This document shows, piece by piece, positions 20,407-46,425 of a stretch of DNA of 64,000 nt. The stretch lies in assembly GCA_965216945.1 (NCBI GenBank), contig CBDCGU010000003.1, positions 3,526,653 to 3,590,652 on the forward strand, given 5' to 3'. Position numbers and translations under genes: made by a program. How positions within the stretch are numbered: the first letter of the stretch is position 1; each line of letters opens with the position of its first letter. The DNA comes from Acidimicrobiia bacterium (GTDB taxonomy: Bacteria > Actinomycetota > Acidimicrobiia > Spongiisociales > UBA5794). The notes under the pieces are model-generated. The model did no database searches. It was given only the letters and a program-made list of their open reading frames with translations, and had not been told where the DNA came from.

Positions 20407-20560
20407 CGTGGCAAGCTACCAGGGTCGGCGTGGCCCGCGAGTCCATGATCCGGCACGATTTCCGTGATTTGGCGCGCCCGTCCCAGTTTCATCACGTTTG
20501 ATGATGCGCCGCGGGCAGCCACGGGAATAAGTTCGACAGTGGTAGGGCAACGTTGGGAGT

Positions 20561-21433: not shown

Positions 21434-21763
21434 GGTGACTGCCGGATCATAGTGCACCTTGACGGACCAGTCAGGTAGCCGTATTATCTAGTCAGGAAAC
21501 CAGACGAATGCGAGGAGAGGGGTGATGCACGGCGGTGTGAATGTTCGCTGGAACCGGCCGCCGCGGACGGCGGCTGGTCCAAGCCGCAGGCGCCAGTCTC
21601 GGGCGAGGCGGGGCCCGTCGCGCCTACGCATGAGGGTCGTTCTGGTCGTATTACACCGCACGTTGCCGTTTGGGGAGCTCTTCGTCCTCGGCCCACCGGC
21701 ATCCGCATATCGGGCGATCGGCCGCACCGGTGCGGAGCGAGCCATGGAATCGGAACAGCGGCG

Positions 21764-23114: not shown

Positions 23115-23155
23115 TCCGCCTGGTTTGCGTCCGATCGTGTTGCCTGGAGTGAGCT

Positions 23156-24019: not shown

Positions 24020-24027
24020 GGCATCCA

Positions 24028-24909: not shown

Positions 24910-24933
24910 GCTCTTCGGTGAAGATGCGGTCGT

Positions 24934-24949
24934 GAACGAACGTTCGCTC
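24934..24949. promoter_or_regulatory. GAACGAACGTTCGCTC operator variant followed by CTTCCC, about 60 nt upstream of the second LLM gene
   Basis: Read directly; near-identical to the 56434 site, including the downstream CTTCCC. Confidence 0.45.
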
Positions 24950-25005
24950 TCTTCCCATGGGCGATGGGCGCTCCGCGGCGGCGGTGTCAGTGTGCGCCCG
25001 TCGAG

Positions 25006-26055
25006 ATGATGGAAGTCGGCATCCGCGTACCCGGTTCGGAATCGGTCGACGAGGTCGCCTCGTTCGTGGCGGAGCTGGAGGGTCGTGGGTTCTCTTCGGC
25101 GTGGGTCCCCGATTCGCAGCTGCTCTGGCGCGACGTGTGGATCACACTGGCCGCAGCAGCCCAATCAACGCAGCGGATCGCCCTGGGGACCGCCGTTGCC
25201 AACCCGGTGACTCGGCACGGATCTGTTACGGCCACGGCGGCGAGGACCGTGGACGAACTGGCCGGCGGACGCATCCAAGTCGGGATCGGCCTTGGGGGAA
25301 CGGCCACCTCTTCTGTGGGACTCGATCCGGCAACGGTGCGCACGTTCGAAGGATTCGTCAACGGCCTTCGCACCTTCCTGAGCCAGCAGCTCGCGCTCGA
25401 TGCAATCGAGAGCGACACCACCCAGCGGTCCCGGATCCCGCTCCTTGTCGGTGCGTCGCGCCCGAGGATGATCCGACTGGCCGGTCGAGTGGCGGACGGT
25501 CTCATCTACCCAGGGCCGTTTACGGAGGAAGCCGTGAGGGGCGCGCTACGTCTTGCGCGTGAAGCTGCAAGGCAAGCCGGTCGCAACCCGTCGCGTCTGA
25601 AGTGTGTGCTCGCACCACTGACCCATGTGGGCGACGAGCCGCTCGGCGAGTTGGCCGATCTTGGTCCCCACGTGCTCCAATCGATTGCCAAGGATGCAGA
25701 TCATGCCTCAAATGCTCACGCCGCCGCCATCGGTCATCGGACGTTCCCCGATTTGAGTCACGCCGTCGATTGGGACCACGCCGTGCTAGCTGCCACCGAC
25801 GTGGATCAGGCCACGATTGCGACGTACGCCGATGAGATGTGTCTCATCGGCACTCCGCGTGACGTGGCGCGACGGATCGAGGCCTTCGGATCGTGGGGCG
25901 TCGACGGCGTCATCCTCCGCGGTCTCCACCCGCATCGGCTGCCTCGCGAGCTCAGCTGCACGGTCGCAACCGACGTTCTGCCACGGATCGGCACCGATGA
26001 CATCGTGCCGTCCGGCCATGAGCTCGCCGAGGAGAAACCGAAGGCGGCACGGTGA
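25006..26055 (+). CDS. LLM class flavin/F420-dependent oxidoreductase
   Basis: Luciferase-like TIM-barrel pattern (GFSSAWVPDSQ, IGLGG). Confidence 0.75.
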   Translation: MMEVGIRVPGSESVDEVASFVAELEGRGFSSAWVPDSQLLWRDVWITLAAAAQSTQRIALGTAVANPVTRHGSVTATAARTVDELAGGRIQVGIGLGGTATSSVGLDPATVRTFEGFVNGLRTFLSQQLALDAIESDTTQRSRIPLLVGASRPRMIRLAGRVADGLIYPGPFTEEAVRGALRLAREAARQAGRNPSRLKCVLAPLTHVGDEPLGELADLGPHVLQSIAKDADHASNAHAAAIGHRTFPDLSHAVDWDHAVLAATDVDQATIATYADEMCLIGTPRDVARRIEAFGSWGVDGVILRGLHPHRLPRELSCTVATDVLPRIGTDDIVPSGHELAEEKPKAAR

Positions 26056-26942: not shown

Positions 26943-27444
26943 CCCCACCGCGAACATCGTGGCCACCATCAACGGTCGCACCCACAGTGCAAGCGTGGAG
27001 CCCAGACTGACGCTGGCCGACTTCTTGAGGGAGCGTCTGGGTCTCACGGGAACGCACCTCGGATGCGAGCACGGGGTCTGCGGTGCCTGCACCGTGCTCG
27101 TCGACGGGTCTGCGATCCGCAGCTGCATTCTGTTTGCGGTCCAAGTCGATGGTTGCGTCGTGGAGACGGTCGAAGGTCTCGATGACGGCGGTCGGCTCAG
27201 CCCGATCCAAGAGGCCTTCAAGACGAACCAAGGGTTTCAGTGTGGCTTCTGCACCCCGGGCATCATCATGATGGCGACCGAGTTGTTACGCGAGGGCGGA
27301 CCTTTGACGAGGGAGCAGGTTCGTCAGGAGATGAGCGGGAACCTCTGCCGGTGCACGGGCTACCAAGGCGTGATCGATGCAATCGTGGCTGCTGCTGCCG
27401 CGAGAGACATCACACCATCGCGTGATTCTGAGACTGCATCATGA
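26935..27444 (+). CDS. (2Fe-2S)-binding small subunit (CoxS-like)
   Basis: CEHGVCGACTV and CGFCTPG, NLCRCTGY iron-sulfur motifs. Confidence 0.85.
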   Translation: MSDPTANIVATINGRTHSASVEPRLTLADFLRERLGLTGTHLGCEHGVCGACTVLVDGSAIRSCILFAVQVDGCVVETVEGLDDGGRLSPIQEAFKTNQGFQCGFCTPGIIMMATELLREGGPLTREQVRQEMSGNLCRCTGYQGVIDAIVAAAAARDITPSRDSETAS

Positions 27445-29792
27445 TTCGGGAGCCGGTCTTCGGGTCGCCGATCGATCGCATCGATGCGGACCGTATGCTC
27501 TCCGGACGCGGCGAGTTCGTCGCCGACGTGATGCGGCCAGACATGCTGCACGCCGTATTCGTGCGCAGCCCGCTGGCGCATGCCACCGTCGGTACGATCG
27601 ACATCCAGTCCGCCGCGGCGCTCCCCGGGGTGGTGGCCGTTCTAACCGCAGATGACTTTCCGGCGACGGCCCTGTCGAGCGGTGCGCGCCGTGAGGGTCT
27701 GCAGGAAACGCCGCAACCGATCCTCGCCAGAGATCGTGTCAGGTTCGTAGGTGAGGCGGTCGCGATCGTCGTTGCGGAGAACCGTTACGTCGCCGAGGAT
27801 GCGTCGAGGCTCGTGGTAGCCGATTACGAAGCGTTGCCCGTGTCGATCGATCCCATGGCTCGAAGCCGTGACGACCACGAGCCGCTGTGGCCGCACCTCG
27901 ATGACGACGTGGTGTTCCGGGAGGACGCAGTCTTTGGCGACCCCAGCGCTGCGTTTGCGTCCGCCGCCCACGTCGCGTCGGCCACGCTGGACATGAGCCA
28001 TGTGAGCGCGGCGCCGATTGAGACGCGAGGGTGCGTGGCTGAGTACGACCCGGCAACGACCACACTCACATTTTGGAGTTCGACCCAGGCTCCACACCGG
28101 CTTCGCAACAGTCTCTCCGGCCTCACGGGACTAGCCGAGCACCGCATCAACGTGAAAATGCACGATGTGGGAGGTGCGTTCGGCTCGAAGATCCCGCTTT
28201 CGCCGGAGGAGGTGGTGGTCGCCTTGACATCGCTGCGGCTCCATCGACCCGTCAAGTGGATCGAAGACAGAAGAGAGAGCCTGGTTGCCGCGCCACACGC
28301 CCGCGGCACTTCGGCGGACGTTCAGCTTGCCCTGGGACCGCGTGGTGAGCTGCTCGGCGCCAAGGCGCGGTTCGTGGGTGATGCGGGTGCATACTCCTAC
28401 AACAGTGGGAGTGCCCTCGTCGAGGCGTTCATCGCCGCTCGACGCTTTCCCGCGTGCTACCGCCTCGAGCACTACTCGTACACGGTCGAGGTCATTCTCA
28501 CCAACAAGTCCCCGATCGCCCCGTTCCGAGGCGTCGGCGACGTGTGTGCGACGACGATTCGTGAGCTTGGGCTCGACGCCGCGGCGCGTGAGGTTGGTGT
28601 CGATCGGGTAGCCATCCGCCGGCGAAACCTCGTTACGTCCGAAGAACTGCCGTACACGTCGTGCACCGGGTTCGTACTCGACAGCGGCAGTTTCCTGGAG
28701 GCGTTCGACAAGCTCGTCGACATCGTCGGCTATGACCGGTGTGTCGCTGATCATGGCGAGGAGAGCAAGGTAGGACGCACCCTCGGGGTCGGCCTGAGCG
28801 TCTTCATCGAGGCCTCCGGCGACGGAGCCGAGCGCGGTCGACATCTCTGGGGCCGTCCGACGACCGTCATGGAGACAGCTCGAGTGGCGCTCAATGCGTC
28901 GGGTACAGCAACGGTGTCCTTCGGTACGACGTCGCAAGGTCAGGGTATCGAGACGGCGATGTGTCAGATCGCGGCGGATGTTCTTGGTCTCTCGATCGAT
29001 GACGTCGATGTCGTGTTGTCGGACACCGCCACCAGCCCGGTGAGCACCGGTGGGACGCGCGCGAGCAGGGTCGCAGTTGTCACGGGAGGCGCCGTGGGAC
29101 GAGCCGCCGAAGCGGTGCGCGAGCAGATTCTCCGCGCCGCGTCCCATCTGTACGAGGTGGCGGTGGGCGATCTCGAGGTCATCGGCCGGGAGCTGATGGT
29201 CGTCGGGGCTCCGTCGACGGCCACCCCCATGAAGGTCGTCATCGCCGACGCATTCCGATCTCCGCTTGTGCGGGAACGCGAGCCGGACCTCACATTCTCC
29301 GCTACTCGGGCGTACGACATGGGATCGACGTTCGGCAACGGCGCTATCGGCTGTGTCGTCGAAGTTGATACCGACACCGGACGGATCATCCCAAAGAGGG
29401 TTGTCGTCGTTGACGATTGCGGCACGGTGATCAACCCCGCCAGCGTCGACGGTCAGGTGCGAGGCGGCGTTGTGCAGGGGATTGGATCAGCTCTGTACGA
29501 GCGGGTTCATTATGACGAGAACGGCCAGATCATGACGGCGACTCTCTTCGATTACCTCCTGCCGGTGGCTGCCGATGTGCCCGACATCGACGTATATCAC
29601 GTCTCATCTCCATCTCCGAACACCTGGCGTGGGATCAAGGGAGCAGGTGAGGGTGGGAGCATTGGGACGCCAGCGGCGGTGCTTGCGGCCGTAGCAGATG
29701 CATTGGCGCCGCTCGGTGTGGACATCGCGAACATGCCGTTGCTGCCTGAGCTGGTGAGCTCGCTGGTCGAGGCCAAGCTCACGGACACATGA
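27441..29792 (+). CDS. xanthine dehydrogenase family molybdopterin-binding large subunit (CoxL-like; not a form I CODH signature)
   Basis: 783 aa; ATGA overlap with the small subunit; active-site loop reads IAPFRGVG rather than VAYRCSFR. Confidence 0.85.
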   Translation: MIREPVFGSPIDRIDADRMLSGRGEFVADVMRPDMLHAVFVRSPLAHATVGTIDIQSAAALPGVVAVLTADDFPATALSSGARREGLQETPQPILARDRVRFVGEAVAIVVAENRYVAEDASRLVVADYEALPVSIDPMARSRDDHEPLWPHLDDDVVFREDAVFGDPSAAFASAAHVASATLDMSHVSAAPIETRGCVAEYDPATTTLTFWSSTQAPHRLRNSLSGLTGLAEHRINVKMHDVGGAFGSKIPLSPEEVVVALTSLRLHRPVKWIEDRRESLVAAPHARGTSADVQLALGPRGELLGAKARFVGDAGAYSYNSGSALVEAFIAARRFPACYRLEHYSYTVEVILTNKSPIAPFRGVGDVCATTIRELGLDAAAREVGVDRVAIRRRNLVTSEELPYTSCTGFVLDSGSFLEAFDKLVDIVGYDRCVADHGEESKVGRTLGVGLSVFIEASGDGAERGRHLWGRPTTVMETARVALNASGTATVSFGTTSQGQGIETAMCQIAADVLGLSIDDVDVVLSDTATSPVSTGGTRASRVAVVTGGAVGRAAEAVREQILRAASHLYEVAVGDLEVIGRELMVVGAPSTATPMKVVIADAFRSPLVREREPDLTFSATRAYDMGSTFGNGAIGCVVEVDTDTGRIIPKRVVVVDDCGTVINPASVDGQVRGGVVQGIGSALYERVHYDENGQIMTATLFDYLLPVAADVPDIDVYHVSSPSPNTWRGIKGAGEGGSIGTPAAVLAAVADALAPLGVDIANMPLLPELVSSLVEAKLTDT

Positions 29793-35046: not shown

Positions 35047-35281
35047 AGTCTTCCGTTTCTGATCGGGCGGTTGGGGGTGGAAGAAGCAAGAAGGTGGCGG
35101 CCAGTCCGGGCACTGTAGCGCAGCGCAGTCCACGGCCGAAGGCCCGGCGGCAGTACGAAGGGGCTGATGCCCCGTACCCCCTCGTCGGTTGTGAGTGCGG
35201 CGTGTTGACTTGACGGCGCTCGGCAATATTGGCGATGCTCGATGCCGTCGGCCACTTGCGACGAGAAGATCGGACCCTGAC

Positions 35282-36076
35282 ATGGAACGGACAGCGACAT
35301 CGGACGGTGGAGAGCTGAGTCGATGTCAACGACTCATCGGAACGCGTTGCTTCGTGACCGGGGCAGCATCCGGTATCGGTCTCGGCGTCGCTCGCCGCTT
35401 TGCGCAGGAGGGTGCATTGACAACCCTTGCAGACATCGATGCGACAGGGGTTGTCGATGCGGCGCTTGCGGTTGCCGAGTTCGGCGAGACGTATTCAGTG
35501 GTCGTGGACGTCGCCTCCAAGCCGTCCGTGCTTGCGGCGATGGCCGAAAGCGTTGAGCAGATGGGGGGAGTCGACGTTGTCGTCAATTGCGCCGGCATTG
35601 AGAGTCACCACACTCCTTACGACCTGCCCGTGGAAGAGTGGGACCGAGTATTTGCAGTGAATGCACGGGGAACGTTTTTGGTCGCACAAGCGGGCGCTCG
35701 GCAGATGCGAGAGCAGGGGACAGGCGGGTGCATCATCAACATCTCGTCGGTTCAGGCCGAGGTTGCCACTGGGGAGATTGCCCACTACGCGGCCTCGAAG
35801 GGTGCCGTTCGTCAGCTCACCAAGGCCCTCGCCGTGGGTTTCGCCCGAGACGGGATCCGTGTGAACGCAATTGGTCCAGGTCCTGTGGCGACTGGCATGT
35901 CGAGTTGGCTCCACGATTCGGCACAACGCGCACGAATCCTCGGACGACTGCTCAGCGAGCGTCCCGGTACTCCCGACGACATCGCGGCAGCTGCAGCGTA
36001 CTTGGCTTCCGACGATGCCGGATTCGTGACTGGTACGACGCTATACGTCGACGGTGGTGTCTTGGCGGTCAGATGA
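35282..36076 (+). CDS. SDR family NAD(P)-dependent oxidoreductase
   Basis: VTGAASGIG, NCAG, SSVQ...YAASK motifs; start position approximate. Confidence 0.75.
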   Translation: MERTATSDGGELSRCQRLIGTRCFVTGAASGIGLGVARRFAQEGALTTLADIDATGVVDAALAVAEFGETYSVVVDVASKPSVLAAMAESVEQMGGVDVVVNCAGIESHHTPYDLPVEEWDRVFAVNARGTFLVAQAGARQMREQGTGGCIINISSVQAEVATGEIAHYAASKGAVRQLTKALAVGFARDGIRVNAIGPGPVATGMSSWLHDSAQRARILGRLLSERPGTPDDIAAAAAYLASDDAGFVTGTTLYVDGGVLAVR

Positions 36077-36095: not shown

Positions 36096-37169
36096 TCACA
36101 CGTCGAGGCGTGAACGTAGCTGCAACATTGCTGCCGCTGCCCCTTCGAGATCGTCGACGTGGAAGCCTTCGGCAAGATCAGGGTCGAGCGCGGCGAGGGC
36201 TTCTCTCACGGATCCGTTGTAGACAACCCGACCCTCTTTCGTGACTTGGGTGCCGTGTTCGTTCTCAAACTGGGAGTTCCAGGCGACGGCAGCGTCCTCG
36301 TCCAGGCCTGGGGGGAGATCGAGCGACAGCTCCCCCTTGTCGATCCTGATCGGATAGCCGCCAGGGAGTCCGGCCGGTCCGGGGACGTGGTCGAAGTGGT
36401 CGCTACCTCGAGCCAGCGCCACGATCAAAGGCACTGTTACGAGAGCTGCTACGAGGTTGTGGGGCTCGATACGGCCCAGCTCTGCCTTGCGGAATTGGTC
36501 GTACACATCGTCGACCTCGCGGCCATCGATCCATACTCGCGGGGGCTGGCCTTCTCGATCGGCGGCGGGCTCCTGCCATGTGGCCGATTGTCTATGGTGC
36601 GCCAGCATTTGAAGCTTCGTCCGTGCAGGGAGTGTTTCCCTGAACGCGGCAGCAAGGATCTGGATGTTGCCAACACCACACGTGACCGGAAGGCGCTTCG
36701 CAGCCAGGATTTGGTTGACAACGTCCGGGAAGGAACAGTTGACGTAGGGCGGCACGTCGTCCAAGAGCAACAACGCTTGACCGATCCGAGCGGCCAGGAG
36801 TGCCTGTAGAGGCGAAGCAACCGTGAGACCGGTCTCTCTGAGAAAGGTCGACCATTGCGAATCGCGGGTCAGCGACATCAGGGGAGGTTGCACTGTCGCC
36901 GCATTCACGACCAAGCGGGGGCCGAGCGATTGGATGGTCTCTGCAATCGTCGACGGACTCGACCAGTCGATCAGAACCGGGGAGAAGCGGACCTCGCAAC
37001 CTGCGGCGATCGACCGTACGTTTCCCGTATACGTCAGGTCCGTCAGTGTCTCACTATGGCGCCCTCCAACGGCGACTCGCAGCGGGCCATCAGGGACGAG
37101 CGCCAGATCGTGCACGATCTGCGTCGCATAGAGCCCGCTACCCGCCAGAAACACGTCACATGATGTCAT
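36096..37169 (-). CDS. hypothetical NAD(P)-binding protein (saccharopine dehydrogenase-like N-terminus?)
   Basis: VFLAGSGLYATQIVHDLA Rossmann-like start; otherwise unrecognised. Confidence 0.4.
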   Translation of the reverse strand: MTSCDVFLAGSGLYATQIVHDLALVPDGPLRVAVGGRHSETLTDLTYTGNVRSIAAGCEVRFSPVLIDWSSPSTIAETIQSLGPRLVVNAATVQPPLMSLTRDSQWSTFLRETGLTVASPLQALLAARIGQALLLLDDVPPYVNCSFPDVVNQILAAKRLPVTCGVGNIQILAAAFRETLPARTKLQMLAHHRQSATWQEPAADREGQPPRVWIDGREVDDVYDQFRKAELGRIEPHNLVAALVTVPLIVALARGSDHFDHVPGPAGLPGGYPIRIDKGELSLDLPPGLDEDAAVAWNSQFENEHGTQVTKEGRVVYNGSVREALAALDPDLAEGFHVDDLEGAAAAMLQLRSRLDV

Positions 37170-37236
37170 TGGTCACTCCTCCCGATCCTGTGAGCCGAAC
37201 AGCCCGACGAGACTGCTGGGGCTATCACACTCCTAT

Positions 37237-37971
37237 TCATGGCACCAACAGGCGAACACCGGCAAGCGTTACGACGGAAGCCAGCAAGATCCTGAAGAGG
37301 CTGGGGCTCATCTTGCCGAGCAACCGCTTTGCGTACGAGGTCGCGATCAGAATTGCGACCGATAACAAGGCAATCGCCGGTATGAATTCGGCAACCAGAA
37401 GGCCCGACGCCGAGTAGACAGCGGTCTTGGCGAGTACTGTCGTGACAGCCATCAGTGCCATCGTCGAGACGAACCGTTCCTTCTCGAGACCGCGACGCGT
37501 CAAGAAGGGCGCGATGATGGGGCCTGAACCACCGACCGTTGCGGCAACGAATCCTGAGACTGCTCCGACCGCTGAGAATGGGCGATGGCTCATCGCCTGC
37601 CGTGATGTAGCTCGGTGCCATCTCGCACCGGCCACGATCACGCTGCCGAGGAGGAATGTGCCCATGGCAACCTCGAGGGCACGCTGCGGTATCTGCGTCA
37701 GCAGCAGGCCACCGACGACGACGCTCGGGATCATCCCCATGGCAAACCAACCCACCGCCTTGCCATCCACGTCGCGTCGGAACAACCACGACCTGAGGAG
37801 GCTTCCGACCAACAAGACAGGCGCAGTCACCACGACCACCGTTTGTGGCGGCAGGAAGGCCGACAGGACGGCGATCATCAGCAGTCCCCCTCCGAGGCCG
37901 ACGATGCCATCGAGTGCGCCGGCTCCCAGGCCGATGAGCAGCAACAGAAGCACGGCCACCGGAGTGCTCAT
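37237..37971 (-). CDS. sulfite exporter TauE/SafE family membrane protein
   Basis: Two-repeat 4-TM pattern with GxGGG segments (LGGGLLMIAVL; VGGSGPIIAPFL). Confidence 0.75.
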   Translation of the reverse strand: MSTPVAVLLLLLIGLGAGALDGIVGLGGGLLMIAVLSAFLPPQTVVVVTAPVLLVGSLLRSWLFRRDVDGKAVGWFAMGMIPSVVVGGLLLTQIPQRALEVAMGTFLLGSVIVAGARWHRATSRQAMSHRPFSAVGAVSGFVAATVGGSGPIIAPFLTRRGLEKERFVSTMALMAVTTVLAKTAVYSASGLLVAEFIPAIALLSVAILIATSYAKRLLGKMSPSLFRILLASVVTLAGVRLLVP

Positions 37972-37985
37972 GCCATCGAGAGGCG

Positions 37986-38465
37986 TCACTTCGATCGATG
38001 CTTCGGGAGGCGGCGAGGGTAGTTGCGATGGTCGAGCGGCTCCGAGTTGAGCATCACCGTCGTCTCGGTGGGCACTTCGGCGGTCGCAAGGGCCCGCGCA
38101 TGACACCCGGCCTCGGCAGTCTGGATCAAGGCTGCCACTTCCGAAGGGTCATCTGGAGATTCGACATGTAGCTCGATGCGGACGCCACGACACTCCGAGT
38201 TCAGGGTTCCGGCAAGTACCGACCCGCTGGTGGCCCAATCGATCTCGACCGAGCAGCGTGCGGACTCCACCGTGACCTTCATGAGTTCCGCATATCTGAG
38301 CACCATGCTGGCCAGGCACATCCCCACGCCGGCCGCGACGTAGTGCAACGGATACGGGTGGGCGTCCCCGCCGCCGGCATCTACCGGTTCGTCCGCGAGG
38401 AAGGTGTGGTCCCCAACCGTCGCCTTCATGACGAGGCCGGCGATATGCGAGACACTGACCTGTAC
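37986..38465 (-). CDS. OsmC/Ohr family peroxidase-like protein (start approximate)
   Basis: DEPVDAGGGDAHPYPLHYVAAGVGMCLASMV and AEAGCHARA: the two conserved Cys regions of OsmC. Confidence 0.55.
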   Translation of the reverse strand, partial: VQVSVSHIAGLVMKATVGDHTFLADEPVDAGGGDAHPYPLHYVAAGVGMCLASMVLRYAELMKVTVESARCSVEIDWATSGSVLAGTLNSECRGVRIELHVESPDDPSEVAALIQTAEAGCHARALATAEVPTETTVMLNSEPLDHRNYPRRLPKHRSK

Positions 38466-38529: not shown

Positions 38530-39453
38530 TCACGCACCCAATCTCGAGTCCGCTTCCCGCAGAACCTCGCACACCTGATCGTGGTCACCCGTTGCCCAAT
38601 CGGTGTCAACGACGACCTCGGTGAGGCCGGTCGCCACGAGATCGGCCCATTGCTCGGCGATCGCATCAGCGCGGCCCTGGGACCGGCTCAAACGTAGCGC
38701 AAAACGCAGCGTGGCCGGGTCGCGGCCGACCGATTCGGCTTCGTGTTTCATCTGCTCGAAACCCTCGCGCAGCTCCTCGAGATAGAGCTGATCGGCGCGA
38801 CGAACCGGGTTCCAGGCGCCGTTGGGTATTCGGCCCGCACGGCGGATCGCGTACTTGCTGTTTCCTCCGATGAACACGGGGATCTCGTGCAGGGGTGTCG
38901 GGTAGGCGAGGGCACCCTCTCCCAAGCTGTAATGCTTGCCATTGAAGGGCGACGTGTGCCCCTTCCAGCATTCCTGCATCAGGGCGATTCCCTCGTCCAG
39001 CAGCTTGCCACGTTCCTCGAACGGCACGCCGAGAAACTCGAACTCCTGTGCGAGCCACCCTGCGCCGACGCCGAAGCCTTCGACCCTCCCGTTCGACAGA
39101 TGGTCGATGGAGGCAACCTGTTTGGCGACCACGATGGGGTGCCGGTAGGGGAGCACGAGGACCGTTATGCCGAGTTCGACTCGATCCGTCACGGCAGCCA
39201 TGGCCGCGAGGGTCGTCATGGCGTCGTGCCACGGGTTGAGCGTGTAGGCGGAGTCGGCCTCCTTTCCCCAGAACCCGCCCTCGACGAACCGGTCTCTCCT
39301 GGGTGTGGTGATCTTCGTCGGAAGCACGACATGGTCGCGGCACCACATGGAATCGAACCCGGCCTGCTCGAGGATTCGGGCCATTGTCGTGATACCGATC
39401 TCCTCCGGAAGCGGCCCGCTGTTGGGCAGCATCACTCCAATCTTGGTCGGCAT
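38530..39453 (-). CDS. LLM class F420-dependent oxidoreductase
   Basis: Luciferase-like pattern; RBS GGGAGAAGAGG before ATG 39453. Confidence 0.8.
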   Translation of the reverse strand: MPTKIGVMLPNSGPLPEEIGITTMARILEQAGFDSMWCRDHVVLPTKITTPRRDRFVEGGFWGKEADSAYTLNPWHDAMTTLAAMAAVTDRVELGITVLVLPYRHPIVVAKQVASIDHLSNGRVEGFGVGAGWLAQEFEFLGVPFEERGKLLDEGIALMQECWKGHTSPFNGKHYSLGEGALAYPTPLHEIPVFIGGNSKYAIRRAGRIPNGAWNPVRRADQLYLEELREGFEQMKHEAESVGRDPATLRFALRLSRSQGRADAIAEQWADLVATGLTEVVVDTDWATGDHDQVCEVLREADSRLGA

Positions 39454-39466
39454 GTGCCTCTTCTCC

Positions 39467-40501
39467 CTAGTCGTTGCGTCGGTCGGCTTGCTGATGTTCT
39501 TGGGTCCTGTTTCCCACGATCGGTCGCTCGACGAGTGGTCGCTCCGCGAGTCGCAAGCGAAAGGCGACATCGGCCGGAGGCCAACACTCGATCATCGTGC
39601 ACGCCTGGAACATGACGGTTCCCTGAATCGTCACGTCCCCACCTCCTGGCTCGCCGGAAAACGTCAGTGGTTGGTAGCCACGCACCATCCTCTGGTAGCC
39701 GACGTAGGACCCGTCCCCGTCGCTCATCACGATCGGCGACGCCGGTGGCCACTCCGTTGCCCCGATCTCCACGCCGGGTATCGGATCAATGCGCACGACG
39801 AGTGGTTGGCATCCCTCGGGCACGGGGGAGGCGTAGATGTGAACATCGTCCGAGAGTTCGATGTCGTAGATGAGCCAGATCCGCTGGAAGTGTCCGTAGG
39901 TTGGCGAGTCGGCCCGTACCGTGACGTTGACCGGGCCCGACCCAAGGTCGACGCGTGGCCCGCCATGTGGTGCGGCGATCCCGAGGGCTCGCTCGAGCAA
40001 GCCGGAGCCGGTCTCGCGCTCGCGGTAGCTCTGGTGGAACCGCTTGTCCACCACCGTGCTACCTCTGATGACGAACACGCCAGGGTACGGGACACCCTCG
40101 TGGTGTGGCTTGGGCGAGATGCCGTAGGCTGCGTGCTGTTCCTCGACGTGAACGTTGAGAAGGCCGAGACGCTCGATGACACGTCCTCCTGCATCACTCA
40201 GCAGCGGGAACTTGATGCCGTGGCGCGCGGAGAACGACGCAAGTACCTCCGAGGTATCGGGGCTCACTGCGACGACGCAATAGCCGGCGCTCTCCAGCAC
40301 TTCTCGCACTCCCTCCAACTCGACCAGCTGGGTCTTGCAGAAGGGTCACCACTCGGCACTGCGGTAGAAGAGGACGATGGCGTTTTCGGCCGAGCAGTGA
40401 TCGGAGAATCTCGCCGTCCGGCCGAACTGATCCGGAAGCTCGAAGTCTGGCCAGGCTTGACCAACCAGCGGACCGATCGCATCGAAGTCGAGCTCAATCA
40501 C
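39467..40501 (-). CDS. peroxiredoxin (AhpC/TSA/redoxin) with C-terminal extension; single in-frame TGA (40346-40348) exactly at the peroxidatic Cys of FYRxxWCPxC (reads FYRSAEW-TGA-PFCKTQL). Either a selenocysteine candidate or a nonsense-disrupted pseudogene
   Basis: Same reading frame on both sides of the TGA; GTG start with N-terminus GQAWPDFELPDQFGRTARFSDH typical of Prx. Confidence 0.5.
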
Positions 40502-40541
40502 CTTGGTGCAGCTTCCATGGAGTCGGATCCGGGAGGCGGCT

Positions 40542-41429
40542 TCACGCTGGCTCGATCTCGAGCTCGGTCGCAAGTTCCTCGATGGCGCGCAGCGACTCGT
40601 CGAGAGTCCGCTTGCGATAGTCGACGTCGACGACGAGGTCGTGAACACCAAGTGCTTCGTATTGGGCCGCCAATTCTCTGGTGTGCGGCCAGTTCTTGAG
40701 GGAGGGGTTCACGACGATCCGCAGCTCATCGAAGGGGCGCTCCGCACCCTCGGCGAAGGCACGGAGTCGTCGGAGTCCATCGGCCACCTTGTCGGGTGAG
40801 TCGCCAGCGGGATTCCAGCCGTCGCCAACGGCGACGACTCGGCGGAGTGCTGGATTGCTCGAACCGCCGATGAGGACGGGGACGTGGGCTCCCTGTGCGG
40901 GCTTTGGCTGTTGGTAGAACGTCGTGTCGTCGTGGAAGCGCTTGTCCTCCAACGTGACGGGGTCGTTGCCCCAGACGTCGCGCAGAACCTCGATTGCCTC
41001 GGTCGTGAACGGGCCCCGGTCGGCGAACGAGGCACCGACGAGCGAGAACTCCTTTTCGTTCCACCCGGCCCCCACACCGAGCCAAAGCCGGCCATCTGAG
41101 AGAACATCCAGCGACGCCGCGAGCTTGGCGACCACCAACGTGGGGCGATAGGGCAGCACCAGAACTGTGATACCCAAACTGACGCGCTCTGTGTGAGCGG
41201 CGACCCATGTCAGCGCCACAAACGGGTCGAGCCGAGGGGTATCCAGGGGAAACTCCATGCCGCCGTGGGAGCTATAGGGATAGACGGTGCCGTCGAGGTC
41301 TGGCAAGGCGACGTGGTCCGTCGACCACAAGGACGTGTAGCCCGCGCTCTCTGCCAGCGTGGCGACCGCGGTGAGCGCTTCGACGCTCATCAACGGCCCA
41401 TGGCTCGGCAACTTGAGTCCGAATCTCAT
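40542..41429 (-). CDS. LLM class F420-dependent oxidoreductase
   Basis: MRFGLKLPSHGP start; luciferase-like motifs. Confidence 0.8.
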   Translation of the reverse strand: MRFGLKLPSHGPLMSVEALTAVATLAESAGYTSLWSTDHVALPDLDGTVYPYSSHGGMEFPLDTPRLDPFVALTWVAAHTERVSLGITVLVLPYRPTLVVAKLAASLDVLSDGRLWLGVGAGWNEKEFSLVGASFADRGPFTTEAIEVLRDVWGNDPVTLEDKRFHDDTTFYQQPKPAQGAHVPVLIGGSSNPALRRVVAVGDGWNPAGDSPDKVADGLRRLRAFAEGAERPFDELRIVVNPSLKNWPHTRELAAQYEALGVHDLVVDVDYRKRTLDESLRAIEELATELEIEPA

Positions 41430-41495
41430 GTCAGTCCTCGATTCTCCTCGTCGTGATCTCAACGGCCCGTCCGCCCAAGACACTACCTCGCAATC

Positions 41496-41513
41496 CGAAC
41501 GAGCGTACGTTCG
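41496..41513. promoter_or_regulatory. operator-family site CGAACGAGCGTACGTTCG, about 65 nt upstream of the LLM-Prx-LLM-OsmC-TauE operon
   Basis: Read directly. Confidence 0.5.
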
Positions 41514-41539
41514 ATGAAGACGCCACCTGCTGCTCTGAA

Positions 41540-42388
41540 CTACGTGGTTGCCGATTGCGCCAAGCCGAGCACGTTCGCTGGGTTTTCGAACAGGAGCTTC
41601 CGCAGAACGTTCGGTTCGAATGGAAGCTGCCGAAACCGGTCGATTGTGTCGAGACCATTGAAGGGAAAAGCACTGGCGTAGAGCACCTGATTCTGGATGA
41701 CGGAGTTTGCGGCCGCAATGACAGGCTCGGCCCCCGGGAGGAACTCGTACAACGAAAGCTCGAGGTAGACGTTGGGGTGGCGGTAGGCGAGGCCAATCAA
41801 CTCTGTCACCTGTGGCCAGCATCCGTGCGAGCACACGATCGTCAGCTCGGGGAAGTCCTCCGCCACCCGGTCAACGGCGGCAGGATTGGCGAATCTCCCT
41901 ACCAGCGGTCCCAAGGTCAGCACGACCGGGACACTTCGCTCGGCTGCCGCTGCATAGATCGGATAGAAGATGCGGTCGTCTGGACAAGACTTGGCCGCAT
42001 CCGGATCCAGCGCCACGCCGGCAAGCCCAAGCTCTCCGACCGCCCGATTGACTTCAGCGACCGCAGCTACGATGCCATCGGTCGGGTCGACGCCTGCCAC
42101 CCCGATCAGGCGTCCGGGGTAGCGTCGCACACAGTCGGCGATGTAGTCATTGTCGACACCCCTCGTCAGGGCGCCGTTGGTGCGTCGCTGCCGGCCCGTG
42201 AAGACGGCGTGATCGATGCCGTTCTCTTCCAACGCGGCGACGTAGTCCTTCAAGGCAACACCGGTTGGGGCCAGGTGGTCGAAGAACTCCCACATCCGCT
42301 CAGTGCCTTCCCCGACATAGTCTTTCATGACCTGTGCGGTGTTTGGTCTCGCTCGGAAGTCGATGATCGGGTAGCTCTCTTTAGGCAT
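41540..42388 (-). CDS. amidohydrolase-2 family protein (paralog of 23156-24019)
   Basis: MPKESYPIIDFRARP start parallels MIIDFRVRPP. Confidence 0.7.
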   Translation of the reverse strand: MPKESYPIIDFRARPNTAQVMKDYVGEGTERMWEFFDHLAPTGVALKDYVAALEENGIDHAVFTGRQRRTNGALTRGVDNDYIADCVRRYPGRLIGVAGVDPTDGIVAAVAEVNRAVGELGLAGVALDPDAAKSCPDDRIFYPIYAAAAERSVPVVLTLGPLVGRFANPAAVDRVAEDFPELTIVCSHGCWPQVTELIGLAYRHPNVYLELSLYEFLPGAEPVIAAANSVIQNQVLYASAFPFNGLDTIDRFRQLPFEPNVLRKLLFENPANVLGLAQSATT

Positions 42389-43349
42389 CGGTGCTCCTAT
42401 CCCTTGGCGACAATCTGGACATGACATCGGCGGAGAAGTCCATGAAGAAGCGCTGCTGGGCAACACGTGAGGCTCCTTCCAGCATGACTCTGCAGACGAT
42501 CTGGCTGGCATCGATGTCAGCCATTGCTGCCAAGGCAGACGCCACGTGGTCGGCGTCGCCGACGATTGCTGTGCCCACCGCCTTGTCGAGCGCGTCTTCG
42601 ACCTCGGCGCGAAAATCCATCGCCGAGTGCTCTCCTTGTGCGTCCATCGCCCAGCCAAGACCTGCGTAGAGCACATAGCTGGCTCGGAGCCAGCTCAGGA
42701 CGGCCTCGCGCTCGGCTTCGCTACGGACGATCCATGTGTTTCGCATGAGTACGAATCCCGGCCTTGACTGCGCCGTTCCGGACTGAGCCCAGCCGTCGAG
42801 CTGGGCGGACCGCAGGTCGCGCGCCCTTTCGATCGGGGTGGCTCCCGACATGATCAGCGCCCTTCCGTGGCGACCAGCACGTCTTGCGCCCGCGGTGGTG
42901 GATGTGCCAACGACCACACCAAACCCGGCGTTCTCGAGGCGAGAGCACAGCGCCTCGTGTCGCGCCACGCGTTCGCTCCGGAGGATGCCCTTGCCGTCGA
43001 ACTCTGGATCGCGGTACCCAAGGCCGAGTCCGATGTCGATACGCGGGCCGTAGCTTTGCACGAGTTGATCGGCGATCCGCACCACTCGGTCTGGATCCTG
43101 AAGCGGAGCCAGCAGCACACCGGTGCCAACTCGGATGCGCTCGGTCGAGGCAAGCGCACTGGCTGCAGCCGGAAGAAGGGCTGGGCAGTACCCGTCATAG
43201 AAGAAGTGGTGCTCGGAGAGCCAGAGTTCGTCGAACCCCAGGCTCTCCAGCATGACAGCAGAGTCTCGTAACTGCTGGTAGGCAGCGACGTGGTGCATTG
43301 GCCTGGTCGCCGTGGACTGAAGGCAATAGAGTCCGACGCCGAACTTCAT
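42381..43349 (-). CDS. LLM class flavin-dependent oxidoreductase
   Basis: MKFGVGLY start; luciferase-like pattern. Confidence 0.75.
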   Translation of the reverse strand: MKFGVGLYCLQSTATRPMHHVAAYQQLRDSAVMLESLGFDELWLSEHHFFYDGYCPALLPAAASALASTERIRVGTGVLLAPLQDPDRVVRIADQLVQSYGPRIDIGLGLGYRDPEFDGKGILRSERVARHEALCSRLENAGFGVVVGTSTTAGARRAGRHGRALIMSGATPIERARDLRSAQLDGWAQSGTAQSRPGFVLMRNTWIVRSEAEREAVLSWLRASYVLYAGLGWAMDAQGEHSAMDFRAEVEDALDKAVGTAIVGDADHVASALAAMADIDASQIVCRVMLEGASRVAQQRFFMDFSADVMSRLSPRDRSTDA

Positions 43350-43371
43350 GCGAGCCCAATACTCGAAGAGG

Positions 43372-43389
43372 CGAACGAACGTACGTTCC
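43372..43389. promoter_or_regulatory. operator-family site CGAACGAACGTACGTTCC, 23 nt upstream of the LLM start (inside the ORF-track's extended ORF)
   Basis: Read directly. Confidence 0.45.
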
Positions 43390-43578
43390 GAGTGGCGTCT
43401 CCGACGCAACGAGGTCGCCCTGACAACGTGTGCCACGCTGCTCCTGGCTTGGCGATCCAGTTTCGGGGAAGGAGCCGCCGGGCCATCTTGAGGTCCATGT
43501 CTCTGGGGGATCTACTCACCAGCGAATGTCGGGCCTTGCGACGACTCGCCGATTCCCGAGTGCCGATGCTGCAACTGC

Positions 43579-44700
43579 TCATGAGGGCTTCGGGTCGGGC
43601 CACGCCGGCTTCTTCAAACGGCTCGGATGTGCCATGCGGTACTGCTTTGGGTATGAAAGGTCGATACCCAGCCTGTCGGCTGCGTGCCATGCCCAGCGCG
43701 GATCGTCGAGCATGCCACGGGCAAGTGCAACGAGGTCGGCTTTGCCAGAATTGACGACCTCATCTGCCTGGAACGGCTCAGTGATCATCCCGACTGCGAT
43801 CACGCGTATGCCGGCTTCGTTTCGGATGCGTTCGGCGAATGGGACTTGATATCCGGGCCCGGTAGCGATTCGTTGTTGTGGCGCCAGACCACCCGATGAG
43901 ACATCGATGAAGTCGCATCCCAGCTCGCGCAGCTCGCGGGCAAGTACAACGCTCTCGTCGATGTCCCACCCACCGGGAACCCAGTCCGAGGCAGAGATTC
44001 GCACGCCGAGCGGCTTGTGGCGCGGCCACTCGGATCGCATCGCAGCGAACACCTCGAGTACGAGTCGCATCCTGTTGACCAGCGACCCGCCGTAGGAGTC
44101 GGTCCGCTTGTTGCTCAGGGGCGACAGGAACTGGTGGAGCAGATAGCCGTGAGCGGCGTGCAACTCCACGACGTCGAATCCGATTCGTTCGGCACGCCTG
44201 ACCGCTCCGACGAATGCGGCCACGATTCGCTGCAACCCCTGCGACTCCAGAGCCACCGGGGGAGGGTCTTTTGGGTCGTAGGGGATGGCCGAAGGGGCAC
44301 TGCATTCCCACCCGCCTTCGTCCGGCATGATGAAGCCATAGCCTTCCCAGGGTGGGCGGGTCGACGCCTTCCTTCCGGCATGTGCCAGTTGGATCCCGAG
44401 TGAAGCCGAGCCGTGTCGACGGCAGAAGTCAACAACGCGCGTGATGGCGTCTTCCGTAGCGGTGGAATGAAGTGAGGGACACCCTGGGCTGATCCGGCCC
44501 TCGGGCTCGACAGCGGTTGCTTCCGTGAATACGAGGCCGGCACCGGAGACCGCATATTGGCCGAGGTGCATGAGATGCCAGTCCTGCATGAGGCCGTCAA
44601 CTGCGCTGTACTGGCACATCGGCGAGACAACGATCCTGTTCTCCAGTTCAACCGAGCGGAGCGCAAGCGGCGTGAAGAGGGCGGCCTTCGAGTCGGGCAT
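43579..44700 (-). CDS. NADH:flavin oxidoreductase (Old Yellow Enzyme family)
   Basis: LALRSVELENRIVVSPMCQY...HAAHGYLLHQFLSPLSNKRTDSYGGSLVNR OYE motifs. Confidence 0.8.
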   Translation of the reverse strand: MPDSKAALFTPLALRSVELENRIVVSPMCQYSAVDGLMQDWHLMHLGQYAVSGAGLVFTEATAVEPEGRISPGCPSLHSTATEDAITRVVDFCRRHGSASLGIQLAHAGRKASTRPPWEGYGFIMPDEGGWECSAPSAIPYDPKDPPPVALESQGLQRIVAAFVGAVRRAERIGFDVVELHAAHGYLLHQFLSPLSNKRTDSYGGSLVNRMRLVLEVFAAMRSEWPRHKPLGVRISASDWVPGGWDIDESVVLARELRELGCDFIDVSSGGLAPQQRIATGPGYQVPFAERIRNEAGIRVIAVGMITEPFQADEVVNSGKADLVALARGMLDDPRWAWHAADRLGIDLSYPKQYRMAHPSRLKKPAWPDPKPS

Positions 44701-44747
44701 CTCGCACCTTTCCCTTGGAGAGAGTAGATTCACCACGCGAACGGACG

Positions 44748-44761
44748 TTCGTATGACCGTG
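44748..44761. promoter_or_regulatory. operator variant CGAACGGACGTTCG (followed by TATGA) in the divergent OYE / cupin-SO intergenic region
   Basis: Read directly; resembles the 60523 site CGAACGAACGATCGTATGA. Confidence 0.4.
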
Positions 44762-44922
44762 CTACGACAGCGTAGCCCATTTGTCCGGGCGCAAGGCTCG
44801 CTGCAAGCGGGAGCTGGCCCACTATGCCACCGGCGGCAATCGCATGGCTCACCGGACTCGAGGAATGCGGTCGCGAACGGCCGCTCGATGCGGCAGTGCG
44901 TAGAGACAGCGAAGGCGGACCG

Positions 44923-46425
44923 ATGCCGATCGTTCAACATGACCGTGATACGGCCATCCCAGGGGAGAACCGTGTCTCCCTGCGCGACCTGGTCACCCAA
45001 CAACAGGGGGCGACGTCGTTGAATGTCACGGAGTTGGTGATCGAGCCAGGAGTTCGGCGGAGCTTCTCAGGTCAACCGGTAGAGACTGCATACATGCTCG
45101 TCGAAGGCTCGATACAGATGGTGGTCGGAGACGAGCGCCGCACCGTCTGCGCTGGCTCGACGCTGCTGGCGCCGGCGGACACAGCGCACGAGCTCGTAAA
45201 CGACACCTGGGTTGACGCCAGGCTCGTTGTGATCACCACGGTGGAACGAGGTCGCAGAGCACCCGGGCTCGCCACCCTCGCGTCACCTGGGCCAGCGGAT
45301 GAGACCGCCTCGATGCCGCATCGGGAGGAAGGGCATCTGATACCTACGGACGGCGATGGCCGCTCGTTTGCTACGCCACCCGGTGCGCTGCGCGACGTTG
45401 TCGTGCCAAATCACAGGTTCTACGTTCGCAACCATTGGGAAGGCGCACCTCATGTCGATCGCGACACGTATCGGCTCGACGTCAGCGGTGACGTTTCACA
45501 CCCCCTGCAACTGAGCATGGACAGATTGCTGGCGCTGCCCAGTAAGCGACTGGAAGTCACTCTCGAATGTTGTGGCAACAGCCCAGTACCCCATTTCTGG
45601 GCGCTACAAACGCGACCGGCAATGGACAAGGTCTCTGGTCACGGACTCGTCGGCAACGCCGTGTGGCGTGGGGTGCCTCTGGCCCAGGTCCTCGAAATGG
45701 CTGCCATCAACGAGAGTGCCGTCGAGGTGGTGTTCACAGGTGCTGACCATGGGCCGGATGAAGTAGCAGGCGAGCCACCGGATGTGACCTACGAACGCAG
45801 TCTGCCGATTGCCAAGGCCACACATCCGGACACGTTGTTGGCCTACGAGATGAACGGTGAACCCCTCCCGCCACTGCACGGATCACCACTGCGCCTTATC
45901 GTTCCCGGCTGGTACGGCATGACCTCGGTCAAGTGGCTGGTCGGCGTGACGGCGATCGACCACACGTTCGCTGGGTTCTACCAAACGAGCCGTTACATGG
46001 TCGCAAACGGCCCCGCCGCTGAGCACTACTACACGTATCTGACGGAGATGCGTGTCAAATCGATCATCACGAGTCCCGCCCCCGGTGAGAGCGTGCCGCT
46101 CGGAACATACCGGATCGCCGGCGCCGCGTGGTCCGGCACAGACGAGATCATCGGCGTCGAAGTGAGCTCCGACGCAGGTCTCACGTGGTGGGGTGCGCAC
46201 CTCTCGCCGCGGACCGACTATTCCTGGCAGCGGTGGGAAGCCGAGTGGACGCCTCAGACGGCCGGTAGGTATACCCTCATGTCGCGGGCCACGAACAGCA
46301 GCGGTGAGACCCAGCCGATGGAGTTCCCCAATGTCTGGGATGGTCGCAGCTATGGGAACAACATGGTCTTCTCACGCATCGCCGAGGTTCGGGACGTGAC
46401 GGCGGCGAGGTCCTGGCACCATTGA
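44923..46425 (+). CDS. fusion protein: N-terminal cupin domain plus sulfite-oxidase-family molybdopterin oxidoreductase (Mo-binding and dimerisation domains)
   Basis: Single uninterrupted frame; cupin-like N-terminal 140 aa, then SO-family region (LECCGNSPVPH...GWYGMTSVKWL). Confidence 0.65.
   Translation: MPIVQHDRDTAIPGENRVSLRDLVTQQQGATSLNVTELVIEPGVRRSFSGQPVETAYMLVEGSIQMVVGDERRTVCAGSTLLAPADTAHELVNDTWVDARLVVITTVERGRRAPGLATLASPGPADETASMPHREEGHLIPTDGDGRSFATPPGALRDVVVPNHRFYVRNHWEGAPHVDRDTYRLDVSGDVSHPLQLSMDRLLALPSKRLEVTLECCGNSPVPHFWALQTRPAMDKVSGHGLVGNAVWRGVPLAQVLEMAAINESAVEVVFTGADHGPDEVAGEPPDVTYERSLPIAKATHPDTLLAYEMNGEPLPPLHGSPLRLIVPGWYGMTSVKWLVGVTAIDHTFAGFYQTSRYMVANGPAAEHYYTYLTEMRVKSIITSPAPGESVPLGTYRIAGAAWSGTDEIIGVEVSSDAGLTWWGAHLSPRTDYSWQRWEAEWTPQTAGRYTLMSRATNSSGETQPMEFPNVWDGRSYGNNMVFSRIAEVRDVTAARSWHH

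Follow-up and report, generated by a model that had tools for sequence, protein, structure and literature searches.

Here we report a gene on the minus strand of a 64-kb stretch of a contig from an Acidimicrobiia bacterium (hereafter the window; all coordinates are window positions) that is publicly annotated only as a fragment and is very probably an intact selenoprotein gene shortened by gene callers. The initial annotation of this DNA had placed the minus-strand open reading frames (ORFs) 40346-40651 and 39467-40318 in one reading frame interrupted by a stop codon, and our analysis agrees: the sole break is a TGA at 40348-40346, around which the joined translation reads ...AIVLFYRSAEW-*-PFCKTQLVELEG.... 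Between 40501 and 39467 the frame holds 345 codons including the terminal stop, and neither half contains any other stop or frameshift. The GTG at 40501 is likely the true start and the most plausible one (V/M-IELDFDAIGP...), because the resulting protein aligns with the N-termini of homologues (MPLPPRDF..., MPTLDF...). If the TGA is read as selenocysteine (Sec, U), the product would be a peroxiredoxin (Prx)-like protein of 344 residues with the following features.

39467..40501, minus strand: complete Prx-like gene, predicted to encode a selenoprotein (GTG start at 40501; 344 codons; TAG stop at 39469-39467)
40346..40348, minus strand: in-frame UGA, predicted to be read as Sec, residue 52 (from TGA in relatives, cysteine (Cys) forms and pN/pS, see below)
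40337..40351, minus strand: predicted redox motif W-U-P-F-C (UxxC) with Sec52 and Cys55 (from the translation, the family motif and the Prx alignment)
40049..40465, minus strand: AhpC/TSA (Prx-like thioredoxin-fold) domain, residues 13-151 (Pfam)
39566..39883, minus strand: DsbD-alpha-like immunoglobulin-fold domain, residues 207-312 (Pfam DsbD_N)
39584..39601, minus strand: Cys301-x4-Cys306 pair (CTMIEC) within QACTMIECWPP (motif QACxxxxCxPP)

The only public annotation at this locus is P0001, a fragment of 277 amino acids (aa) downstream of the TGA. No NCBIfam model reaches its cutoff on the window protein (the best scores were 46 of 140 bits for BCP and 33.7 of 120 bits for a SelL-related redox protein), and the truncated form of the NCBI-sourced entry may be due to this lack of a passing model.

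Conservation of the TGA across related loci

Searching 5.8 billion proteins with the joined protein, in which a C replaced the stop, showed that about 90 of the best 120 homologues were 244-277 aa long and covered only the part downstream of the stop, and that a handful were full length. The called starts of these truncated homologues were scattered from +4 to ~+30 codons past the TGA, and no start codon was conserved among them. Related DNA was then fetched without regard to the TGA codon, which yielded 99 loci on 97 distinct contigs with 39-56% protein identity. Seventeen of these loci come from species-representative genomes, all of them metagenome-assembled and belonging to Methylomirabilota/'Rokubacteria' and Chloroflexota/Dehalococcoidia; 80 others come from metagenomes (including soil), and two (L098 and L099) were obtained by exact look-up. 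The homologous codon was TGA in all 99 loci and TAA, TAG or a sense codon in none, so that the TGA is shared far beyond chance. It lies in the local motif RSAxW-TGA-P[FY]C[KR], and U-P-[FY]-C is present in all 97 loci matched by regular expression as well as in L098 and L099.

The sequence upstream of the TGA behaves as coding sequence. Matches by tblastn run from residues 4-5 to past residue 310, across the TGA, and the same-frame homology reaches ~50 codons upstream of it. In 31 phylogenetically independent close pairs, the ratio of nonsynonymous to synonymous differences (pN/pS) was 0.20 over the 50 codons before the TGA and 0.27 over the 40 codons after it. These low values on both sides argue that both are translated in frame, and conservation over the 51 codons upstream is similar to that in the remainder of the gene. 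Searching with a profile built from the N-terminal 51 residues gave 1,229 database clusters; the best 120 of these (P0123-P0242) were all orphan ORFs of 51-76 aa, and the eight that we read all end in ...RSAxW and are annotated as 'peroxiredoxin' or 'hypothetical protein'. Taken with the truncated C-terminal homologues, these N-terminal clusters indicate that the protein is split in annotation family-wide. We note that a single-sequence search with the 51-aa N-terminal fragment gave no match (no shared words), and that none of the best 120 matches of the profile search came from the window's 4.16-Mb contig.

Cys forms of the gene also exist, with TGT at the Sec column in L100/L101 and TGC in L102 and L103; the L100/L101 gene is otherwise close to the TGA genes of L004 and L038. 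The initial annotation had held that close relatives carrying TGC at this codon would refute a Sec reading. This expectation was mistaken, since Sec/Cys pairs are a hallmark of selenoproteins, and the pairing of TGT in L100/L101 with TGA in L004 and L038 is of this kind. A conserved UGA, Cys homologues and coding conservation across the stop together form the standard comparative signature of a selenoprotein, and their presence here excludes a private nonsense mutation. On this comparative evidence, the UGA of the family almost certainly encodes Sec.

The closest relative of the window gene, L098 (56% identity), has a perfect 7-bp hairpin downstream of the UGA with the same C18-G34 pair as the window (see the next section). 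In addition, the window's own contig (4,156,462 bp) encodes a paralogue, P0014 (256 aa; 46% identity by tblastn), which is annotated with an N-terminal truncation of the same kind as that of P0001. This truncation suggests a second in-frame stop in the same genome, and the identically truncated P0014 is an indirect hint that the genome maintains Sec decoding.

Several family members deviate from the common form. The gene in L100 (1501-2517) and L101 (506-1522; P0003) has the TGT codon with the hairpin still intact, which looks like a recent Sec-to-Cys conversion; it has lost both Cys of the DsbD-alpha-like motif (YQAGDDTSRLVP), and the OsmC-like gene upstream of it keeps its TGA. L102 (1501-2580; P0083) and P0086 are distant two-domain Cys forms with signal-peptide or lipoprotein-like N-termini, and the L102 gene is located between an extracytoplasmic function (ECF) sigma factor gene and lgt. 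P0005, a full-length entry of 342 aa from the Joint Genome Institute (JGI), has W at the Sec position (FHRSAEW-W-PFCK), and it is likely that the gene caller of the source translated the TGA as Trp. In L017 (~6500-7018; Chloroflexia, metagenome-assembled contig), the C-terminal homology is lost past ~residue 165 and the gene ends early, which may be due to a frameshift or an assembly error.

A hairpin downstream of the UGA

To describe the RNA downstream of the UGA, we used a gapless alignment (A3) of 66 distinct sequences covering 54 nucleotides (nt) from the UGA onward. RNAalifold and a structure drawn by hand agree on a single helix, in which nt 18-24 (counted from the U of UGA) pair with nt 28-34, and the family consensus is GCAGCUC-GUN-GAGCUGC. 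Paired cells made up 99.1% of this helix compared with 92.8% in column shuffles, and none of 500 shuffles reached the observed value; sliding the 3' partners by 1-3 nt lowered the paired cells to 10-53%. Compensatory changes were found at three of the seven pairs. Specifically, pair 24-28 occurs as C-G (45 sequences) or G-C (18), pair 21-31 as G-C (61), A-U (three) or G-U (two), and pair 18-34 as G-C (64) or, in the window, as C-G (likewise C-G in L098, which lies outside A3).

Codon choice is a fairer test of the hairpin, since the encoded peptide TQLVELQ is itself conserved. Within the stem, Gln is encoded by CAG in 63 sequences and by CAA in three, and all three CAA codons are matched by UUG on the opposite arm; for the next Gln, which lies just beyond the stem, the counts are 37 CAG and 26 CAA. 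For the second Leu codon, CUG (61) and UUG (5) are used and CUC never, yet CTC accounts for 38% of the Leu codons in these genes. The first Leu codon is CUC where the opposite arm has GAG (45 sequences) and CUG where it has CAG (18 sequences), with only three exceptions, and the Val codon in the loop is free to vary (GUC 39, GUU 14, GUG 13). Synonymous sites are frozen only inside the stem.

We compared these hairpins by hand with the consensus for the bacterial Sec insertion sequence (bSECIS), which calls for a loop of 3-9 nt with G in its first two positions (usually G then G/U), a stem of 4-16 bp, a UGA-to-loop distance of 16-37 nt and a minimum free energy (MFE) of at most -7.5 kcal/mol (PMC13188914). 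The family hairpin lies within all four bounds (loop GUN of 3 nt, 7 bp, 21 nt, -11.6 kcal/mol). The window version does so narrowly, with 6 bp including one G-U pair, a loop widened to GGUCG by a G-G mismatch, a spacing of 20 nt and -7.9 kcal/mol; its CUG-GUC-GAG variant also occurs in L083 and L088. Two mutually exclusive hairpins can be drawn in the window:

40315..40331, minus strand: candidate SECIS-type hairpin in the family register, nt +18 to +34 (CCAGCU-GGUCG-AGUUGG; loop 40321-40325)
40311..40345, minus strand: competing hairpin CCCUUC..GACC-CAGCU-GGUC..GGAGGG, specific to the window (MFE structure of the free RNA, -16.8 kcal/mol)

The second is the hairpin that the initial annotation had drawn. 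It exists as a 12-bp interrupted stem and is indeed the MFE structure of the free RNA, but it does not stand as a SECIS candidate: it is conserved in no relative, does not appear in the alignment of 66 sequences and falls outside two of the four bounds, its CAGCU loop having no G in positions 1-2 and its spacing being 15 nt. When nt 1-12 were occluded in the computation, the family-register hairpin of the window formed with a pair probability of at least 97%. The lower stem of the competing hairpin (nt 4-12) would be held in the mRNA channel of the ribosome with the UGA in the A site. The occlusion result agrees with the description of the lower SECIS helix as being unwound when the ribosome arrives (PMC13188914).

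Alternative readings of the UGA

Several observations weigh against a functional selenoprotein of the proposed kind in this host. Neither selA, selB, selD nor fdhA was found in the 64-kb window (Pfam, ~40 ORFs), and ARAGORN found no tRNA in the window, tRNA-Sec included. The window hairpin is the weakest and most eroded of 67 distinct versions and barely clears the -7.5 kcal/mol bound, and the free RNA prefers the competing fold, which makes up 99% of the ensemble. Among the Cys forms, L102 bears an identical hairpin after its TGC and L103 has lost the hairpin; in part the hairpin arises because TQLVELQ, a conserved peptide, is written in GC-rich codons, or it is a fossil. The 66 aligned sequences are related, so that the covariation counts overstate the number of independent events. 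With regard to the protein, the match to Pfam DsbD_N (PF11412; E 4.5e-5, 23.9 bits) is just below the cutoff of 25, one or both Cys of the C-terminal pair are lost in 22/92 family genes, and we infer the identity of the redox partner and the direction of electron flow proposed below. Scanning the whole window with Rfam at gathering thresholds gave no match, and ARAGORN detected no tRNA-Sec at 24 related loci. The argument that hairpin conservation alone proves a SECIS was dropped, as L102 carries the identical hairpin, and for the same reason our case for a SECIS rests on covariation and on the frozen synonymous sites.

It is conceivable that the gene is a relic in a lineage without Sec decoding, in which the UGA terminates translation or allows a low level of near-cognate (Trp/Cys) read-through. 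This would be consistent with the eroded state of the window hairpin (G-G mismatch, G-U pair, -7.9 kcal/mol), with its stronger competing fold, and with the lack in the window of a Sec-type OsmC partner gene that is present in most relatives (see below). Nonetheless, loss of Sec in a lineage is normally accompanied by conversion of the codon to Cys or by loss of the gene. The former is seen in L100 (TGT), whereas here the UGA is kept and the ORF is intact on both sides of it. The window hairpin remains within all four bSECIS bounds, two family members share its loop variant, and the second truncated paralogue argues that the trait is maintained. We consider a relic improbable and infer that the window's organism decodes Sec; from the comparative data, the window gene is highly likely to be a functional selenoprotein in its host.

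The gene could also be a nonsense pseudogene, in which a single TGC-to-TGA change killed a Cys-type redoxin whose halves are now decaying. A one-base change would suffice, the public annotation treats the locus as the truncated protein P0001, and Sec machinery was not seen in the 64-kb window. Against this, the TGA is shared by 99/99 relatives from at least two phyla, neither half has acquired a further stop or frameshift, and the upstream 51 codons are conserved like the rest of the gene, with purifying selection on this part in the family. Moreover, a SECIS-type hairpin is present at the expected distance, and a paralogue in the same genome is truncated likewise. A pseudogene is very improbable on these grounds. 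The initial annotation had offered Sec and a nonsense pseudogene as alternatives; the TGA in 99/99 loci, the pN/pS values and the hairpin support the former and effectively exclude the latter at the level of the family.

The initial annotation had further placed the TGA at the peroxidatic Cys of a PrxU-type selenoperoxiredoxin, in which Sec would be the peroxidatic residue and reduce peroxide directly. The protein is of the AhpC/TSA type by Pfam (PF00578; E 1e-24, 87.3 bits, cutoff 26), the structures nearest to it are peroxiredoxins of the BCP and AhpE types, and OsmC-type peroxidase genes are found nearby, all of which would fit such an enzyme. However, in phmmer alignments with the solved peroxiredoxins 5xbs, 5epf and 2e2g, Sec52 falls opposite the Thr of PxxxTxxC and Cys55 opposite the peroxidatic Cys. 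The segment FYRSAEW-U-PF-C-KTQ is matched with FSHPADF-T-PV-C-TTE and FFYPAAM-T-PG-C-TKE, and the catalytic Pro and Thr of the Prx motif are absent, with Ser in the Pro column and Sec in the Thr column of the window's YRSAEW-U-PFC. The motif is UxxC and not the TxxU of Sec-peroxiredoxins, and it is by this motif that Prx-like selenoproteins are set apart from them (PMC1088965; PMC13188914). The placement at the peroxidatic Cys was not borne out, and a PrxU-type enzyme is, in our estimation, even less probable than the pseudogene.

The Prx-like class has been described in earlier surveys. In the Global Ocean Sampling (GOS) survey it appears as 'Prx-like 1, pfam00578, UxxC', represented by 225 Sec and 2,740 Cys sequences (PMC2398784), and a 2026 review places 'Prx-like thiol:disulfide oxidoreductase, PF00578, UxxC' among the families predicted with high confidence (PMC13188914). 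The window gene has both features of this class (PF00578 and UxxC) and neither of the two PrxU features tested, and judging from its sequence it is a member of the known Prx-like selenoprotein class.

Finally, a reassigned code (TGA as Trp or Gly), for which the W of P0005 might speak, and two polypeptides that assemble post-translationally both have a negligible probability: TGA is the ordinary stop of most window ORFs, including the LLM gene directly upstream, so that the genetic code is the standard one, and a split would cut the thioredoxin fold inside its active site and leave a second part with no conserved start after the TGA, the called starts lying from +4 to ~+30 codons.

Gene neighbourhood, proposed function and known systems

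The neighbourhood of the Prx-like gene comprises the following genes, listed in the order in which they are met when the minus strand is read.

44824-46425, plus strand: sulfite-oxidase-type molybdoenzyme (Oxidored_molyb, Mo-co_dimer, cupin), divergent from the cluster
43582-45003, minus strand: OYE-family flavoenzyme
42384-43436, minus strand: LLM
41543-42676, minus strand: amidohydrolase_2
40542-41834 (maximal ORF), minus strand: F420-dependent LLM-class oxidoreductase (TIGR03619), whose stop lies 40 nt before the GTG start of the Prx-like gene
38530-39453, minus strand: second TIGR03619 F420-dependent LLM, whose ATG lies 13 nt past the Prx-like stop
37986-38429, minus strand: OsmC-related protein (Pfam OsmC; NF041052)
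37240-38106, minus strand: TauE/SafE-family anion (sulfite) exporter (PF01925, E 7.6e-34), the last identifiable gene of the cluster
35198-36076, plus strand: short-chain dehydrogenase

Of the genes that the initial annotation had placed in an apparent redox operon, LLM, Prx-like, LLM, OsmC and TauE are confirmed, all on the minus strand; the 'NAD-binding protein' is found only as the short-chain dehydrogenase on the plus strand. Minus-strand ORFs 36099-37169 and 37169-37789 had no Pfam match. The molybdoenzyme, TauE and several LLMs hint at an organosulfur or sulfite context. L098 shares the order LLM-then-Prx-like as well as the amidohydrolase, an ABC transporter and TauE. The window OsmC is the Cys form of NF041052, 'OsmC-related (seleno)protein' (134 bits, cutoff 95), and it is a candidate redox partner; in L069, L072 and L081, a gene of the same type also follows closely on the Prx-like gene. 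The window OsmC gene probably starts further upstream than the ATG used here, because the NF041052 match begins at profile position 17.

A different OsmC-like gene accompanies the Prx-like gene at 73 related loci, directly upstream and on the same strand in 66 of them. This gene carries an in-frame TGA of its own (HIVAAVAG-U-MYGTLRGA; TGA in 73/73), followed ~21-25 nt past the TGA by a hairpin with a G-rich loop (GCGCCCU-GGC-AGGGCGC), of which a compensatory variant occurs in L011. In the 66 loci, a constant 142 nt separates the stop of this gene from the Prx-like UGA further downstream, which indicates that the two genes overlap and are co-transcribed. In L100, the OsmC-like gene overlaps the Prx-like start by 17 nt. 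Examples of this predicted Sec-OsmC-like gene are found at L001 1206-1712, L007 5487-5996 and L100 1008-1517. With a score of only 23.5 bits on NF041052, the Sec-OsmC-like protein of the relatives belongs to a separate subfamily outside current models. The window itself does not contain the Sec-type OsmC-like gene.

Other features of the window were noted in passing. Two genes with tandem DUF427 (NTP_transf_9) domains lie at 19591-20415 (minus strand) and 21479-22558 (plus strand), and a radical SAM gene and a Memo-like gene likewise lie in the window's first half. Two more LLM genes and an amidohydrolase_2 gene occupy 23153-26052, and a xanthine-dehydrogenase-family molybdoenzyme lies at 27432-29789. 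The window OsmC gene, considered as another gene split by TGA, proved not to be one, being the Cys form. A codon-usage scan for further in-frame TGA genes in the window returned only antisense-shadow candidates apart from the Prx-like gene.

The C-terminal part of the protein resembles the alpha domain of DsbD. Precomputed matches to PF11412 exist on most homologues, and the DsbD-alpha immunoglobulin-like fold was found, with the structure modelled for the Cys homologue P0083. QxCxxxxCxxP is kept in 70/92 complete family genes; about a quarter of the family is without the Cys pair, so that a relay between two redox centres cannot be universal. On reading the window protein and the Sec forms, we saw no signal-peptide-like N-terminus and no hydrophobic or transmembrane segment; signal-peptide-like N-termini occur only in the distant Cys forms P0083 and P0086. 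The 344-residue protein is probably cytoplasmic, because it has neither an N-terminal signal peptide nor a hydrophobic stretch.

Starting from what is observed at these loci (the conserved UGA, Sec/Cys pairing, the covarying hairpin, the domain folds and the neighbourhoods), we propose the following mechanism. With the ribosome at UGA 40348-40346, the hairpin at nt +18 to +34 would present a G-U in its loop, and Sec52 would be inserted in a SelB-dependent manner as in the established bacterial mechanism. Sec52 would then act as the attacking nucleophile, and Cys55 would resolve the intermediate as a selenenylsulfide. The product would be a selenol/thiol-disulfide oxidoreductase rather than a classical peroxidase, because the catalytic Pro and Thr of Prx are missing and the motif is CxxC-like. 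DsbD passes electrons from its gamma thioredoxin-like domain to its alpha immunoglobulin-like domain. By analogy with this gamma-to-alpha relay, electrons may pass from the UxxC centre via or with the DsbD-alpha-like domain, as an internal acceptor or a docking module, to a partner. The likely clients would be the adjoining OsmC-family hydroperoxide reductases, of the Cys type in the window and of the Sec-type OsmC-like form in most relatives.

The fusion of Prx-like and DsbD-alpha-like domains is represented by >1,200 clusters in the databases, chiefly those of soil Methylomirabilota and Chloroflexota. A broader and more doubtful proposal is that this fusion family and the Sec-OsmC form an undescribed, almost exclusively Sec-based two-selenoprotein operon that has been rewired in the window lineage. 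Under this proposal, the pair could constitute a cytoplasmic selenium-based hydroperoxide relay, with the UxxC/DsbD-alpha protein as the specific reductase of Sec-OsmC, and the module of the window lineage could have been rewired to a Cys-type OsmC within a cluster of F420-LLM, TauE and sulfite-oxidase-type genes.

For annotation, these results would mean that the 277-aa fragment is really a 344-residue selenoprotein, which implies that the organism decodes UGA as Sec and needs selenium. Across databases, >1,000 orphan ORFs of ~53 aa and the N-terminally truncated proteins would be the two halves of one selenoprotein. The family and its Sec-OsmC-like neighbour have apparently been missed systematically in soil Chloroflexota and Methylomirabilota, with no NCBIfam model to rescue them. 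The combination of a UxxC redoxin, a DsbD-alpha-like domain and an adjacent OsmC offers a testable functional hypothesis for Prx-like selenoproteins, whose function is still only predicted. We regard the finding as solid and useful for annotation; a specialist in selenoproteins would be only moderately surprised by it.

Prx-like UxxC proteins with Sec have been on record since the early 2000s, and the Prx-like (Prx-like 1) selenoproteins are the nearest known system. They share with the window protein PF00578, Sec as the first residue of UxxC, Cys homologues and a downstream bSECIS-type hairpin, and in both cases the function is a predicted one; WP_010940744.1 is a published representative of that class. 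In contrast to Prx-like 1, the window protein has an extra C-terminal DsbD-alpha-like domain of ~190 residues with CxxxxC. In PMC2398784, this fusion is not among the selenoprotein fusions listed, nor is an OsmC-like/Prx-like pair among the neighbouring selenoprotein pairs listed (BSepDB and the supplementary tables lie outside this comparison), and the only related fusion mentioned in the 2026 review is the rhodanese/DsbD-like TsoB (PMC13188914). Whether the DsbD-alpha fusion and the Sec-OsmC-like operon are truly uncatalogued is, in our view, at best an even chance and perhaps somewhat less.

The remaining known systems differ in clearer ways. PrxU, the Sec-containing peroxiredoxin of Eubacterium acidaminophilum (Sohling et al. 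2001, as cited in PMC13188914), and other Sec-Prx (PxxxTxxU) share the Pfam family, the overall fold and a Sec in the active-site turn with the window protein. However, Sec is the peroxidatic residue in PrxU, whereas the putative Sec of the window protein lies three residues earlier and a Cys occupies the peroxidatic position. Unlike DsbD/ScsB, the window protein has no transmembrane beta domain, its order is redoxin then alpha, its Cys residues are spaced as Cx4C, 22/92 members lack the Cys pair, and its Sec forms have no signal peptide on reading. The extracytoplasmic thiol-disulfide oxidoreductases ResA, TlpA and CcmG (WCxxC) are also among the closest known systems. With regard to the OsmC-related (seleno)protein NF041052 and the 'OsmC-like' selenoproteins of the Sargasso Sea and GOS surveys, the window OsmC is the Cys form of NF041052, and the Sec-OsmC-like protein of the relatives differs from NF041052 in being a separate subfamily that is paired with the Prx-like gene.

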